Assembly (NCBI RefSeq): GCF_002854065.1
Contig: NZ_CP024147.1
DNA from: Escherichia coli
GTDB lineage: Bacteria > Pseudomonadota > Gammaproteobacteria > Enterobacterales > Enterobacteriaceae
Length of the DNA: 64,000 nucleotides
Reading direction: 5' to 3' (one strand)
The notes below the pieces were generated by a model. That model searched no databases. It saw nothing but the letters and a program-made list of their open reading frames with translations, and had not been told where the DNA came from. Each line of letters starts with the position of its first letter. Within the stretch, counting starts at the first letter, position 1. Position numbers and translations under genes: made by a program. Shown piece after piece: positions 28,579-37,851 of the stretch.

Positions 28579-29355
28579 TCACCAGTCAAAACTTTTCACC
28601 AGCGTCAGCTCGCCAGCATTACGCATCGGTACAATAAATTTTTCCTGTTTCTCATTGACCGATCCTTCATCGGTAATCAGCGTCAGTTGGGCGGTGGTTA
28701 ATTCCGTTTCGCTGCGCCCACCATAGTAGTTGATATACACCTGATAGCGCCCGTGAACTGGCGCTGGCATGGCGAAAATCTCGGGTCCGTACCCCGTCGT
28801 GACATCCATATCCAGTGCACCACTGTTTTTCAGCACGGTGTTACCGTACCAGGCGTGTTCGCCATCGGGCGTGACAACATGGAGATCGAGATCGGTATTG
28901 TCCGTATCCCACGAGAGAACCAGCCGTAAACGTGCACGAATCGTTCCTGTACCCGGCGTTGAGTAAAACTGCATTTTTTGTCGGCTTTGCCCATCCGGGC
29001 TGATGACCTGCACGCTGTTGCTGCCTTCAGTGAAAATATAAGGGCGTGCAAATGAACCATCGGATTCAATTCTCTGCGGCATACTGGCACCGTTGACCAC
29101 CAGCCGGCCCTGCTGAGCTTTACCCGCCGCAGCATAATTCTTTATTTTGCCGCGGATCTGCGCTGAGATATTTTGATCATCTGCCATGTTGACGGACGAC
29201 GCCGGGTAATTGATCGATTGTGAAAAACTGGCATCTTCGCCCTCTGCCGGATGCCAGCCTGAGAGCGGTGCGTCAATCTCGACTTCCTGCACACCTTCAC
29301 TGTGAGCGACAGGCGAAAGCGCCACCAGTAACAACAGAAGAAAAATCTTTCGCAT
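28579..29355 (-). CDS. yfaP: Secreted protein YfaP (DUF2135 family as recalled); last gene of the yfaA-T-S-Q-P cluster
   Basis: 258-aa ORF with signal peptide (MRKIFLLLLLVALSPVAHS); start overlaps the yfaQ stop. Confidence 0.85.
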   Translation of the reverse strand: MRKIFLLLLLVALSPVAHSEGVQEVEIDAPLSGWHPAEGEDASFSQSINYPASSVNMADDQNISAQIRGKIKNYAAAGKAQQGRLVVNGASMPQRIESDGSFARPYIFTEGSNSVQVISPDGQSRQKMQFYSTPGTGTIRARLRLVLSWDTDNTDLDLHVVTPDGEHAWYGNTVLKNSGALDMDVTTGYGPEIFAMPAPVHGRYQVYINYYGGRSETELTTAQLTLITDEGSVNEKQEKFIVPMRNAGELTLVKSFDW

Positions 29356-29359
29356 AGCA

Positions 29360-31009
29360 TTAGTCCATTAATAATTGTCGGGTCAGCGTTTCGATATAGT
29401 TCTCATCAAGCCCGGTGGGATAACCATCAAAGGCCAGGTGCAGATACTCATGGGTTAAATCCAGCCGATCCTGAAGCGTAAAGAAGTTACGAATAAACAG
29501 CCGTTTCTGCTGCCGATCGGTATAGGGGAAACCTGAGACTAAACGACAGACCGCAAACACGTCTGGTTCGTTGTACCCCGTCTCGCCTTGTAATATACGC
29601 CGCCACTGCGGCATTTTTTTCGCCAGCCAGGCTTTCGCTTTGGGTAATAACTGACAGGTTGAGCGTGGCGCTCCCCAGCGGCTAAGGCTGTTGTCGGGAT
29701 AAGCAAACGCGAGTATCTGGTCGTAACGCTCTCCCCGCCCCGCCTGGGCCATGGCTTGCCGCCAGGAAAGCGTCCCTTCGGTAGCGCGACTGCCGTGATA
29801 ATGAACCGGATCGCCCGCATAGATGAGATCCTGCGTCCAGGCGGTCATCGTTCGCGCCCCCGTGGTAGCTGGCGAAGCAGAAACACGCTGCGTGGCGCTG
29901 CTGTCGGGGATGGTCAGGCAATCGCCTTCCCGATTGGCGTTTTGCTGTAAAAAAGTGCGAATTGCCACGGTCATGGCTTTCGCTGCCTCAGGGGGCGTAC
30001 TTTTCGCCTCGCGATCCAGAACTCTGGCAACGTACTCTTCACGATCGAGATGCGACTGCAATTTCAGTTTGCCCTTTTCGCTCAGTAAGGTCGTCTCACC
30101 GTGGCTGACAAACGTAATGTGGTTACCATTGGCAAATGTCACACGATAGCGCCCATTAAGTACGCCGGGTTTTACTGACGTCGTACTCTTTTCCGCTGTG
30201 ATTTTCTTCAGCGGATAGCGGGCAAATAGCTCCATCTCTACACATTGCCCACTGGCAACTTGTGTCGGCACTGGCAAAACCCGATTAAGCACCGTCGCAT
30301 AACGGGTCAGTACCGTTTTGCTGGTGCCACTGCCAGTCACCCACAGCGGTGTACCATCGGTTAACCAGCCGGCAAAACCACCCTGACGGATTTCCTGTTT
30401 ATCATCGGCAAACCAGCTCCAGGTTTTCACCCGAACCCGACTACCGAGCATGGATGCGACACCGATTTTCGCCTCGTCCAGCACCACATCCAGTAAGACT
30501 TCCTGAGCTTTGTTTTGCGCAGGTAACGTCGCTAATGAATCAAGCAGCGATTTAACCGTTACCGAGGTTTCTGGCTTCAGCGTAGTAAGAGACGCTAACC
30601 ACGCAGGTGCCTGACGCTGTTGCCAGTATTGCCCCCACACATCTGCGCCAATATGCAACCGCTGCGGCGCAAAATAGAGCCCACAGGAACGTACCAGCGC
30701 GGTATCGCGCGTTATGCTCTCCCCAGCCTGACAACAATAAACCTCTTCCGGGGAGTTTCCGCGACACTGGTAGGGCTGCTCCGGTTGATGGGTATCCTCC
30801 AGCCAGGCGTAAACATACAGTTTCCACAAACTCCCTAACGGCGTGGTGAGCGAGTCAGGTAATGTCGAGGCTTTGGTCACGCCTGATGACGACAGCTGAT
30901 ACAGTTGATCGTGCTGCGCACCACGCAGTGCCAGTTGTAACGGCGTCTCCTCCGCAAGCGTTGGCAGAGTAACCAACGCCAATAGCCAGACGATTCTGCG
31001 CCAGTTCAC
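29360..31009 (-). CDS. yfaQ: Secreted protein YfaQ (DUF2300 family as recalled)
   Basis: 549-aa ORF with signal peptide (MNWRRIVWLLALVTLPTLA); abuts the yfaS stop. Confidence 0.85.
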   Translation of the reverse strand: MNWRRIVWLLALVTLPTLAEETPLQLALRGAQHDQLYQLSSSGVTKASTLPDSLTTPLGSLWKLYVYAWLEDTHQPEQPYQCRGNSPEEVYCCQAGESITRDTALVRSCGLYFAPQRLHIGADVWGQYWQQRQAPAWLASLTTLKPETSVTVKSLLDSLATLPAQNKAQEVLLDVVLDEAKIGVASMLGSRVRVKTWSWFADDKQEIRQGGFAGWLTDGTPLWVTGSGTSKTVLTRYATVLNRVLPVPTQVASGQCVEMELFARYPLKKITAEKSTTSVKPGVLNGRYRVTFANGNHITFVSHGETTLLSEKGKLKLQSHLDREEYVARVLDREAKSTPPEAAKAMTVAIRTFLQQNANREGDCLTIPDSSATQRVSASPATTGARTMTAWTQDLIYAGDPVHYHGSRATEGTLSWRQAMAQAGRGERYDQILAFAYPDNSLSRWGAPRSTCQLLPKAKAWLAKKMPQWRRILQGETGYNEPDVFAVCRLVSGFPYTDRQQKRLFIRNFFTLQDRLDLTHEYLHLAFDGYPTGLDENYIETLTRQLLMD

Positions 31010-36111: not shown

Positions 36112-36162
36112 TTCGCTATGGGCAACAACACAGCCAGCAAATCAGCGCCAGCAGCCCGTGCC

Positions 36163-37851
36163 TCATAGCGGCTGCCAGGCTATGGTTAGCCACTGCCAGG
36201 CGGCACCGGGTTCCATCTGGGCCAGCTTCATGACATAACGCGGTTGTTGAGATAAAGCGTCCAGCTTCGGCATTAATAAAGTTTGTGCGGCGTTATAAAA
36301 AACCGGTTCGAGATTCTTCGGCAGACTGGTCAGCGTTTCGTTACGCAGCAGTTTCGCCACGCCTTGTGGATTGATATAGAGCGGAACGATGCCATCTGTG
36401 GGTATTACATCCACCATTGCCGGGCGGGTTTTATTCAGTGTTTGCAGGGCGTTATTAACCAGCGTGTCATCGAGGGAGAAAAGCAGCGTTTTGTTTTGCA
36501 TCGCCAGCGACACGCGGAAAAAATAATCCGACATTAATTGATCGGGTTGCACCGCCTGCGCTTTCGGATACTGACCGTACCGGGAACTCACTTCGCGACG
36601 CCAGATTTGCGCTTCGCCTTGCTGAGTCTGGCTTACCGGCAAAACACCTTCTGGCGCTTTGCTTTCGTGCGCGCCAATATTTTGCGTAAACAGTTTCCCT
36701 GGCAATTGCGCCTGTTCGGCAGTGCCATCAAACTGACCGACAAACAGCGGGGTTTGCAATTTTGAGTCTGCATACCAGCACAGCCCCGCGGCACCGTCCA
36801 ACGCCCCATTCAACTTGTCGTTTTCCTGGCTGATGTGCGAAAGCATCTCTTCGGCAATACCGTGTGAATACGGCACCGCCACACAGAAGCTGGCCCCGGC
36901 AGGCATACTGTTCCAGACCGGCGTAAAATCGAAACTGGCATCTACGCTGGCGGATTCATCATTTAACGCCACAAAACTGTGCCAGCCGTCGTTACCCATT
37001 TCGAAGCGTACGCCAGCAAAAGAAGGCATTAATCGCTGGTAGCCAAACCCCAGCAACCTGGCGCTGACTACGATACGCTGGCGTACTGGCGTTTTTTCGG
37101 CAGCACGCTCTTCCAGGCCAAAGCTGGCTTGCCAGCGTTTTTTGCCGCTCAACAAATCGCTTGCGATCGCCGTGGCTTCGGTATCCTGCTGATCATCTTT
37201 AAACAGCATATCCGTGCTGGAAAACACCAGCATCTTGTCCTGATATGTCGCGAACATCAGGGCGTTATTGCCGTTATAGCGCAACTGATAAACAGGAATA
37301 GTTTCACTATTTATCTTGATGCTACTGATTTCCGTTTTGCTTAACTGGCTATCGCTGGTAGCAGCAAACAGCAATGGCTCCAGCAGTTTGCTTAAACCAC
37401 TGCGTTGGATCAGCACCATGTAATGTGAAAGATGGCCTTGTTTATCGTGCCATAGCGCCGCCTGCGCGGGCTGATCTAAGAGTGACGAAAAGAGTTTATC
37501 TTTCAGCGTGAGATCGTGTTCATAGACAATGCGGCGAATGCTGCCTTCAATGCCCAGACGATCGGCATGATTCTGATAATAGAAAACGAAATCTTCGCTA
37601 AGAACATCGTGGAGAAACGGAATGGTGAGGAGATCTTTGGGAAGCTGGCTCAGAGAGTCGCTGTCGAGAAAGAGGTCTGGCTCATTGAGATCGATTTGCA
37701 GATTGTTGTGCACCACCAGCGGCGACAACGTTTTTTCTGGCCCACTGCCAGCATATTGCAACGCCCAGACGCCAGCGGAAAGCAGTACTATTGCGCCAAA
37801 ACCTACAAGACCATAGAACCGCCAGCCTTTCGCCTTTTTTTCACCACTCAT
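36163..37851 (-). CDS. yfaA: YfaA (DUF2138 family as recalled), first gene of the cluster
   Basis: Track ORF 36163..37899; start placed at MSGEKKAKGWRF (codon 17), giving 562 aa with an N-terminal transmembrane/signal segment. Confidence 0.85.
   Translation of the reverse strand: MSGEKKAKGWRFYGLVGFGAIVLLSAGVWALQYAGSGPEKTLSPLVVHNNLQIDLNEPDLFLDSDSLSQLPKDLLTIPFLHDVLSEDFVFYYQNHADRLGIEGSIRRIVYEHDLTLKDKLFSSLLDQPAQAALWHDKQGHLSHYMVLIQRSGLSKLLEPLLFAATSDSQLSKTEISSIKINSETIPVYQLRYNGNNALMFATYQDKMLVFSSTDMLFKDDQQDTEATAIASDLLSGKKRWQASFGLEERAAEKTPVRQRIVVSARLLGFGYQRLMPSFAGVRFEMGNDGWHSFVALNDESASVDASFDFTPVWNSMPAGASFCVAVPYSHGIAEEMLSHISQENDKLNGALDGAAGLCWYADSKLQTPLFVGQFDGTAEQAQLPGKLFTQNIGAHESKAPEGVLPVSQTQQGEAQIWRREVSSRYGQYPKAQAVQPDQLMSDYFFRVSLAMQNKTLLFSLDDTLVNNALQTLNKTRPAMVDVIPTDGIVPLYINPQGVAKLLRNETLTSLPKNLEPVFYNAAQTLLMPKLDALSQQPRYVMKLAQMEPGAAWQWLTIAWQPL

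Follow-up and report, generated by a model that had tools for sequence, protein, structure and literature searches.

A mag-type gene cluster of Escherichia coli with a predicted thioester-less macroglobulin, YfaS, and a frameshifted yfaT gene

The yfaA-yfaT-yfaS-yfaQ-yfaP gene cluster of Escherichia coli raises the question of which kind of bacterial alpha-2-macroglobulin (A2M) system it encodes and whether that system is complete. We analyzed the cluster in a 64,000-nucleotide stretch of contig NZ_CP024147.1 (NCBI RefSeq assembly GCF_002854065.1; here referred to as the window), where five co-directional open reading frames (ORFs) occupy positions 28579 to 37851 of the minus strand in this order. 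An initial annotation of the window had described five intact, tightly coupled genes around a 1,539-amino-acid (aa) A2M. The coordinates and the tight junctions of that description stood, but the intactness of all five genes did not, as yfaT is frameshifted, with 5 bp missing. As the initial annotation had stated, the cluster is not new: it is the E. coli counterpart of Pseudomonas magBCDEF, already known both as a kind of operon and as an E. coli locus. Its central protein, YfaS, falls by its sequence into the class of bacterial A2Ms that lack a thioester.

The first gene, yfaA (36163 to 37851, minus strand, like all cluster features below; 562 aa), is a magB homologue of the DUF2138 family that encodes an N-terminal transmembrane anchor and a predicted periplasmic domain. 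Its stop codon overlaps the ATG of yfaT in an ATGA sequence. The yfaT pseudogene (35548 to 36166), a magC homologue of the NlpC/P60-like type, measures 619 nt, compared with 624 nt for an intact copy. Next comes the magD homologue yfaS (31010 to 35614; 1,534 aa), which encodes a putative type II bacterial A2M; its maximal ORF extends to 35629 (1,539 aa), and there is a 67-nt overlap between yfaS and the 3' end of yfaT. The TAA stop codon of yfaS immediately adjoins the GTG start codon of the magE homologue yfaQ (junction at 31007 to 31012; gene at 29360 to 31009), whose 549-aa product has a signal peptide and two DUF2300 repeats. A gap of 4 nt separates yfaQ from yfaP (28579 to 29355; 258 aa, signal peptide), a homologue of magF and magA. 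Hidden Markov model searches matched every family expected here, namely A2M and macroglobulin (MG) domains, DUF2138, MagC/DUF1175, DUF2300, and DUF2135/YfaP_C.

The assignment of YfaS to the MagD type and not to the YfhM (ECAM) class, which the initial annotation had proposed, was borne out by Pfam domains and by a profile alignment. Pfam searches of YfaS identified an MG2 domain (residues 344 to 440; E = 4.6e-19), an A2M_BRD domain (661 to 806; 3.7e-17), an A2M domain (871 to 953; 6e-12), and a bMG10 domain (approximately 1414 to 1517; 1.1e-5). Because a single-sequence phmmer search of YfaS against the PDB gave only a weak match to complement C5 and did not reach ECAM, the link to ECAM required a family profile. 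A profile of 20 members matched ECAM (4rtd; E = 6e-13) and also Sa-A2M, C5, CD109, TEP1, and human A2M. In the profile alignment, the family segment ePyGgvvntasrllP lies opposite YPYGCLEQTASGLFP of ECAM, so that the ECAM thioester residues C-L-E-Q correspond to a degenerate site, G1069-V-I-N1072 (32399 to 32410; translation checked). YfaS has only two cysteines and no C.EQ motif anywhere, as the initial annotation had noted. The thioester domain itself had also been presumed absent, and here the sequence points the other way: the start of a thioester domain (TED)-like region can still be aligned to ECAM, TEP1, and human A2M. The beginning of this region thus appears to remain in YfaS, with only the motif and its chemistry gone.

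The genetic context of YfaS agrees with this assignment. Together with the MG/A2M architecture and the lack of CxEQ at the position of the ECAM CLEQ, YfaS lies in a mag-type operon with a fixed gene order, its neighbours matching the Pfam families DUF2138, MagC, DUF2300, and YfaP_C. The hallmarks of type I are missing: the site reads GVIN and not CxEQ, the adjacent genes are yfaT and yfaQ in a cluster flanked by gyrA and rcsC, and there is no adjacent pbpC gene. Judged by these sequence features, YfaS is intact and belongs, within the A2M family, to the MagD class without a thioester (type II) and not to the YfhM/ECAM class (type I).

A predicted bait segment of YfaS spans residues 846 to 860 (33035 to 33079) and is homologous, by alignment, to ANRSERG, the MagD bait established by experiment (PMC5764988). 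As a separate observation, the near invariance of this segment hints at one specific cognate protease.

The length of 1,539 aa given for YfaS by the initial annotation describes the maximal ORF; the probable protein starts at ATG 35614 and has 1,534 aa. A GGAAGGA Shine-Dalgarno sequence lies upstream of this codon, and the product begins MDTQRF...GLANA/DD with a hydrophobic core. Within the leader (residues 1 to 38; 35540 to 35614), the core reaches a 19-mer Kyte-Doolittle value of 1.69, a cleavage-like ANA/DD lies at residues 36 to 38, and a lipobox-like I-A-A-C25 is found inside the hydrophobic core. RefSeq starts yfaS at GTG 35524 (1,504 aa), which leaves no signal peptide; this 1,504-aa model stands for about 41,000 clustered database sequences. 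Escherichia YfaS is missing 18 leader residues at the place where an internal methionine and a classical leader are found in other genera; in consequence, ATG 35614, the one start codon that gives a signal peptide, falls inside the 3' end of yfaT. In Pseudomonas and Serratia, the internal methionine and a classical signal peptide follow the yfaT stop codon. ATG 35614 is the likely start of yfaS on this comparison, for Escherichia only. The tblastn matches that begin at YfaS residue 1 do not prove that a yfaT/yfaS overlap of 64 to 67 nt, and with it the upstream start, is conserved in all species; by the N-terminal alignment, this conservation is due to the overlapping YfaT C-terminal frame.

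The defect of the cluster in this strain lies in yfaT. The ORF that opens at the ATGA-overlap ATG ends after 16 codons, with a premature TAG as codon 17 (36116 to 36118). Alignment to K-12 and O157 revealed a 5-bp gap (K-12, CTGTGTTGTGTTGTTGCC; window, CTGTGTTGTTGCC) at 36123 to 36132, where the window reads TGT-GTTGT-TG and the wild type has two GTTGT units. What is lost is one unit of a tandem (GTTGT)2 repeat within signal-peptide codons 13 to 16. In the near-identical genome NZ_CM128593.1, the RefSeq entry for yfaT is marked as frameshifted, and an independent draft assembly, GCA_035821435.1, contains the same 187-aa remnant ORF with a Pfam MagC match. In the window this remnant (35548 to 36111) begins at an in-frame ATG at 36111, 4 nt past the premature TAG and 51 nt beyond the end of yfaA. 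It comprises essentially the mature YfaT domain and has no signal peptide and no hydrophobic N terminus, so that it should stay in the cytoplasm if it is made at all. We conclude that yfaT is a pseudogene here, with no intact reading frame that carries an export signal.

To count alleles of the tract, we used exact flanked k-mers among 5,426 complete genomes. Two GTTGT units, the in-frame wild type, were found in about 4,300 genomes; the one-unit allele of the window (-5 bp) was found in 19, three units (+5 bp) in 17, and four units (+10 bp) in 2. All five of the one-unit carriers that were inspected are annotated as frameshifted. These five carriers have cluster haplotypes up to 3% apart, and each is 99.4 to 99.9% identical to a non-deleted genome (13P477T and E371 to E04, EC2 to K-12 TG1, and UTAK-10 to strain 64). 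The one-unit allele is thus present on at least four haplotypes, which indicates that the deletion arose at least four times. The GTTGT tract in yfaT is therefore a recurrent slippage hot spot.

We extended the analysis to other species by a scan of one genome per species, which yielded 325 relatives, and examined the best 80 loci. In these 80 of 325, the order yfaA-yfaT-yfaS-yfaQ-yfaP is kept throughout, wherever the flanks allow it to be seen. This conservation, with the similarity of YfaT to MagC, upheld the initial annotation's view of the cluster as a known, conserved equivalent of the mag operon (PMC3735191, PMC5764988). YfaT is the most conserved of the five proteins (68 to 76% identity to Pseudomonas), and intact E. 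coli YfaT shares about 74% identity with the MagC crystal structure 7BK8 (E = 5.8e-102). YfaS is 53 to 56% identical to its Pseudomonas and Serratia orthologues over the full length. YfaP, with a DUF2135 match at residues 199 to 244 (independent E value, 2.6e-16), is 49 to 62% identical to the product of the gene at the MagF position. A second YfaP paralogue (37 to 44%) occupies the MagA position in Pseudomonas loci, upstream of their yfaA homologue. In Pseudomonas sp. C2B4, a further, partial match to YfaP (61% identity to residues 177 to 258) was also seen, about 2.7 kb downstream of the mag-type operon (L095:19782-20057).

The state of the thioester site varies across the 80 loci. The site reads GVEQ in 60 Pseudomonas loci, CVEQ in 11, and GV(I/V)N in 8 of 8 enterobacterial loci. 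The CVEQ loci (L028, L033, L036, L038, L039, L042, L045, L050, L053, L081, and L096; at about 13,085 to 13,230 in each) have the complete mag-type gene order, and the species that retain this intact CxEQ include P. citronellolis, P. panipatensis, P. indica, and P. ullengensis. In P. jinjuensis (L079, about 13,200), the site reads YPYCGVEQ as against YPYGCVEQ, with cysteine and glycine swapped and the cysteine out of register. A neighbor-joining tree placed the CVEQ sequences in two groups interleaved with GVEQ clades, a pattern that fits an ancestral CVEQ with repeated loss of cysteine to glycine; the tree is distance based and midpoint rooted, so the number of losses is approximate. As 11 of the 80 loci keep CVEQ in their predicted products, loss of the thioester is not a defining trait of the operon family, although this class of operon is regarded in published descriptions as lacking a thioester. 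The second class of bacterial A2Ms has been described as having no cysteines at all (PMC3735191); by the same sequences, this generalization fails for the mag-type operon family as a whole. Among the aligned site sequences, that of E. coli YfaS is in the most degraded state.

We also examined the state of the cluster within E. coli, using 16 genomes spaced evenly down the similarity ranking and checking all five genes directly. Eight genomes have all five genes intact and eight carry a lesion, each of the five genes being damaged at least once. Besides the yfaT slip in the lineage of the window, the lesions are a stop codon in yfaS (W1368*, TGG to TGA) in K-12 TG1 and SY3626C1, a +1 frameshift in yfaS in SCU-102, a stop codon in yfaQ (Y265*) with a -1 frameshift in an A-run of yfaA in O157:H7 611, a -1 frameshift in yfaP in strain 744, an in-frame 162-bp deletion in yfaQ in EH08-18-36, and a prophage with nleA that removes yfaA and most of yfaT in EH2252. 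The W1368* allele agrees with the initial annotation, which had described yfaS as a split pseudogene in K-12 and intact here. Two of the sampled lesions are masked in RefSeq by the choice of a downstream start. Single-base indels in the sampled assemblies may include assembly errors; the nonsense mutations, repeat-unit changes, 162-bp deletion, and prophage insertion are not explicable in this way. Among the 5,426 genomes, the K-12 yfaS stop allele occurs in 364 and the O157 yfaQ stop allele in 309. The ratio of nonsynonymous to synonymous substitution (dN/dS), calculated pairwise among nine intact alleles, is 0.06 to 0.12 for each of the five genes, and the locus is retained to at least 80% in 5,177 of 5,426 genomes. 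The cluster is thus under purifying selection where it is present, yet it is frequently and independently lost. In EH2252, a prophage end with the type III secretion system effector genes nleA and nleG occupies the place of yfaA and most of yfaT (L017:11149-15238), which makes the cluster an insertion target in at least one strain of the enterohemorrhagic E. coli-like type.

Sequence searches with YfaQ, YfaA, and YfaP found no relatives in the PDB, and the folds of YfaQ and YfaA are predictions from 38 to 40 fairly similar sequences. By Pfam, YfaQ has two DUF2300 repeats and a short SpoIID match (independent E value, 1.4e-5 over about 60 residues). The model predicts an N-terminal domain with a serine beta-lactamase/penicillin-binding protein (PBP)-like fold and a C-terminal SpoIID-like domain, and Foldseek agreed on the beta-lactamase fold (E of about 1e-6). 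The predicted active-site elements are an invariant SxxK motif (S60-L-W-K63) that opens a helix, a possible second motif (S108-C-G), and K195-T-W on the following strand. As this third motif is KTW in place of KTG, acyl-enzyme chemistry may be lost, and we do not file the domain as an active PBP or beta-lactamase. In the SpoIID-like domain, E334 aligns to the catalytic glutamate E101 of Clostridioides difficile SpoIID, at a conserved position; in the papers searched, no assay of glycan-strand cleavage by this domain was found. An HExxH motif (HEYLH, residues 520 to 524; 29438 to 29452) is invariant in 38 of 38 YfaQ/MagE sequences, with conserved acidic residues 11 to 19 positions downstream, and could be a metal site; we know of no such motif as a feature of SpoIID. 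YfaQ also has eight invariant cysteines, which argue for a periplasmic protein and against the reported cytoplasmic location of MagE. The YfaA model (predicted local distance difference test score, 76.5) has a transmembrane helix at residues 10 to 34, followed by alpha/beta modules weakly similar to envelope proteins. Several E. coli products in the database (P0037, P0040, P0057, and P0059) join A2M domains with DUF2300/SpoIID domains.

The cluster is flanked by gyrA upstream (38000 to 40627) and rcsC downstream (25455 to 28304), both on the same strand. The gyrA-yfaA spacer (37852 to 37999, minus strand) is the expected place of a promoter and has two hairpins after the gyrA stop; a consensus scan found a terminator-like site there at 37980 to 37963. 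A candidate operon terminator lies at 28463 to 28524 (minus strand), 55 nt past the yfaP stop, as a hairpin with a 14-bp stem (-25.8 kcal/mol by RNAfold) followed by the T-rich tail TCATTTCTTATTTTT; the consensus scan missed it because of its long, 16-nt loop. Terminator-like hits within the cluster were not in excess (16, compared with 11.9 +/- 3.8 expected from shuffles). Gene spacing and the flanking hairpins suggest a single unit, its promoter expected between gyrA and yfaA and its candidate terminator being the hairpin after yfaP. Searches of positions 28000 to 38300 against Rfam at gathering thresholds and of the five proteins against the PADLOC defense models gave no match, and NCBIfam named only YfaA (PRK11410, "hypothetical protein") and returned nothing for the other four. 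The GC content of the cluster is 53.3%, compared with 52.0% in the rest of the window, and GC at third codon positions is close to that of gyrA and rcsC; with a base composition like that of its surroundings, the cluster shows no sign of recent horizontal transfer. The region is a nearly exact match to E. coli strain 100416 (human stool, Gambia), and only 12 of 5,398 matching complete genomes have at least 99% identity across the cluster. Directly after yfaP (28305 to 28578) comes rcsC, as in O157:H7; in K-12, ST131, and most other sampled genomes, the neighbor of yfaP is atoB instead.

How might these proteins work together? The gene content, gene order, motif states, and frameshift observed here can be read against experiments in P. 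aeruginosa. There, MagD is periplasmic and is held at the inner membrane and stabilized by MagB (PMC5764988), and it binds MagA and MagF 1:1 (PMC3735191, PMC5764988). Chymotrypsin, trypsin, and papain cut its bait, and MagD with an engineered bait, in which ANRSERG was replaced by a tobacco etch virus (TEV) protease site, traps TEV protease noncovalently after bait cleavage (PMC5764988). In vivo, processing that depends on MagB reduces MagD from 165 to 100 kDa without added protease, and a figure legend of the P. aeruginosa mag work (Figure 6) lists the 100-kDa form as absent in a magC deletion strain. By analogy with this work, the cluster probably encodes an Escherichia Mag envelope system, a membrane-anchored, noncovalent periplasmic protease trap linked to the cell wall. 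YfaA, with one N-terminal helix in the inner membrane, would anchor and stabilize the exported 165-kDa YfaS as MagB does, and YfaP would be an accessory subunit on YfaS, as MagA and MagF are on MagD. A protease that invades the periplasm would cut the YfaS bait (around ...TNRSERR...), whereupon YfaS would change shape and hold the protease noncovalently, since no thioester can form with GVIN at this site. The trap would be connected to the cell wall by YfaT, a presumed peptidoglycan binder of the NlpC/P60-like type, and by YfaQ, with its predicted PBP/beta-lactamase-like and SpoIID-like domains, a predicted link comparable to the partnership between PBP1c and YfhM, which is of the thioester type. 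In the strain studied here, yfaT is off through the loss of one GTTGT unit, leaving at most a signal-less, cytoplasmic YfaT beside four intact genes.

Several observations weigh against a protease trap of this kind. The bait segment hardly varies between E. coli and Pseudomonas, an unusual property in a bait of broad spectrum; the third YfaQ motif is KTW, not KTG, so that acyl-enzyme chemistry may be lost; MagC is reported to be a catalytically inactive NlpC/P60-like peptidoglycan binder (PMC10318531); and fractionation of P. aeruginosa yielded MagE in the cytoplasm and no detectable MagC in any fraction, a poor fit to a periplasmic cell-wall role. The gyrA-yfaA spacer has no match to the sigma-70 consensus, and no promoter was found in it. 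Lesions are present in 8 of the 16 sampled genomes, and the system is therefore dispensable in many lineages. We found no functional study of E. coli yfaA, yfaT, yfaS, yfaQ, or yfaP in the searchable literature, as the initial annotation had indicated when it called the function of the cluster undetermined. Some of the same evidence would suit a system concerned mainly with peptidoglycan surveillance or remodeling, in which the macroglobulin is a regulated substrate or sensor for one specific, possibly endogenous, protease. Three cell-wall-related folds meet in one operon (NlpC/P60-like YfaT, and PBP/beta-lactamase-like plus SpoIID-like YfaQ; PMC10318531), the SxxK and the SpoIID glutamate position (E334, E101 in C. 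difficile) are kept, the eight invariant cysteines of YfaQ point to a periplasmic protein with disulfide bonds, the bait segment changes little from genus to genus, and MagD is processed in vivo with no protease added. We nevertheless think this alternative unlikely, given that MagD did trap a protease in vitro and had its bait cut by three different proteases, that neither MagC nor MagE is known to have enzymatic activity, that MagE fractionated as cytoplasmic, that YfaQ has KTW in place of KTG, and that the folds were predicted from 38 to 40 rather similar sequences. A joint account, which we offer tentatively and regard as somewhat doubtful, would see the Mag/Yfa systems as cell-wall-coupled traps in which MagE/YfaQ is a periplasmic PBP/BlaR1-like sensor with a SpoIID-like glycan-cleaving domain, its catalytic glutamate intact, acting with MagC/YfaT, the ancestral Mag protein had a working thioester (CVEQ in about 14% of the sampled species) whose cysteine was lost several times independently, and the yfaT tract is an on/off switch for the cell-wall-binding subunit.

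The lesions raise alternatives of their own. The cluster could be a decaying relic that is being lost piecemeal in E. coli and is no longer useful in this strain: yfaT is frameshifted, every gene is affected among the 8 of 16 lesioned genomes, stop alleles are present in 364 and 309 of 5,426 genomes, and the protein database contains many truncated YfaS products. This seems improbable, since dN/dS values of 0.06 to 0.12 among intact alleles of all five genes indicate strong purifying selection, at least 80% of the locus is kept in 5,177 of 5,426 genomes, four of the five genes are intact here, and some of the single-base indels counted as lesions may be sequencing errors. It is less probable still that the (GTTGT)n tract is a selected contingency switch resembling phase variation, with the window in the OFF state. 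Alleles with one, three, and four units all exist (19, 17, and 2 genomes), the one-unit allele sits on at least four haplotypes, each close to a non-deleted genome, and an in-frame ATG follows 4 nt past the premature stop; the wild type, however, has only two units, far below classical contingency loci, and OFF alleles in about 0.9% of genomes are what a modest mutational hot spot with mild counterselection would be expected to produce. Finally, the frameshift might be an artifact of sequencing or assembly and the cluster truly intact, as the window is a single sequence and indel errors occur in long-read assemblies. That explanation is barely credible: the change is the clean loss of a 5-bp repeat unit and not a homopolymer error, and the identical allele is present in 19 complete genomes from differing laboratories, hosts, and countries and in the draft assembly GCA_035821435.1.

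Because the cluster was already known, confirming it changes little. What does matter, to users of this strain or of its annotation, is that ORF spacing alone would call the operon intact although one subunit is knocked out and that the RefSeq start of the macroglobulin drops its export signal. Strong purifying selection combined with frequent, independent knockouts, including those at a slippage hot spot, suggests a costly system that is useful in some niches only, and this population pattern is a testable clue to its function in E. coli. The natural CVEQ, GVEQ, and GVIN variants within one operon family form a ready series for studying the contribution of the thioester, and the PBP-like and SpoIID-like domains predicted in YfaQ/MagE open the role of the Mag complex to simple biochemistry.

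Compared with known systems, YfaQ resembles the SpoIID/SleC lytic transglycosylases in the motif EEYVxxVxxxE...EAxKAxxVAxRT, including the position of the catalytic glutamate, and it lies beside a partner with a peptidase fold, YfaT, which recalls the joint action of SpoIID and SpoIIP in the sporulation DMP machine. YfaQ differs from SpoIID in that the sequence similarity is weak (E = 0.09 by profile search of the PDB) and in having, in addition, a predicted PBP-like domain at the N terminus, the two DUF2300 repeats, and an invariant HExxH in the C-terminal part. The predicted N-terminal domain shares with class D beta-lactamases and the BlaR1/MecR1 sensor domains an SxxK at the N terminus of a helix and a K-T-x on the following strand; in contrast to these proteins, its third motif is KTW and not KTG or KSG, and identity is 10 to 14%.

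YfhM (ECAM) and Salmonella Sa-A2M, the type I proteins associated with PBP1c, belong to the same superfamily as YfaS, judging by the profile match (E = 6e-13), which includes the start of the thioester domain. YfhM is periplasmic and associated with the inner membrane, as YfaS would be by analogy with MagD; the logic of bait cleavage is common to both, and both are genetically coupled to cell wall-related proteins. The two differ in that YfhM has CLEQ, traps covalently, is a lipoprotein, and is paired with pbpC, whereas the site in YfaS is GVIN and its partner genes are yfaA, yfaT, yfaQ, and yfaP.

The closest relative is magABCDEF of P. aeruginosa (PA4492-PA4487; PMC3735191, PMC5764988), with which the cluster shares the magB-F order; for this comparison the gene order was taken from loci of other Pseudomonas species, and the mag names were assigned through the published order and the MagC structure. 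Regulation by RsmA/RetS is known for the Pseudomonas system only. The Pseudomonas loci have six genes and the E. coli cluster five, the upstream magA paralogue being missing from the eight Escherichia, Superficieibacter, Serratia, and Edaphovirga loci. Degradation of the thioester site has gone further in the enterobacterial loci (GV(I/V)N, as against GVEQ in most Pseudomonas loci), the YfaS leader has the 18-residue deletion seen in Escherichia, and, in the window, the magC homologue yfaT is frameshifted. The two systems are alike in an A2M that has a predicted signal peptide and lacks the thioester cysteine, in their homologous bait segments (NRSER), and in a MagB-like partner with one predicted transmembrane helix. 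Identity to the Pseudomonas orthologues is about 68 to 76% for YfaT, 53 to 55% for YfaS, 52 to 57% for YfaQ, 49 to 57% for YfaP, and 43 to 50% for YfaA.

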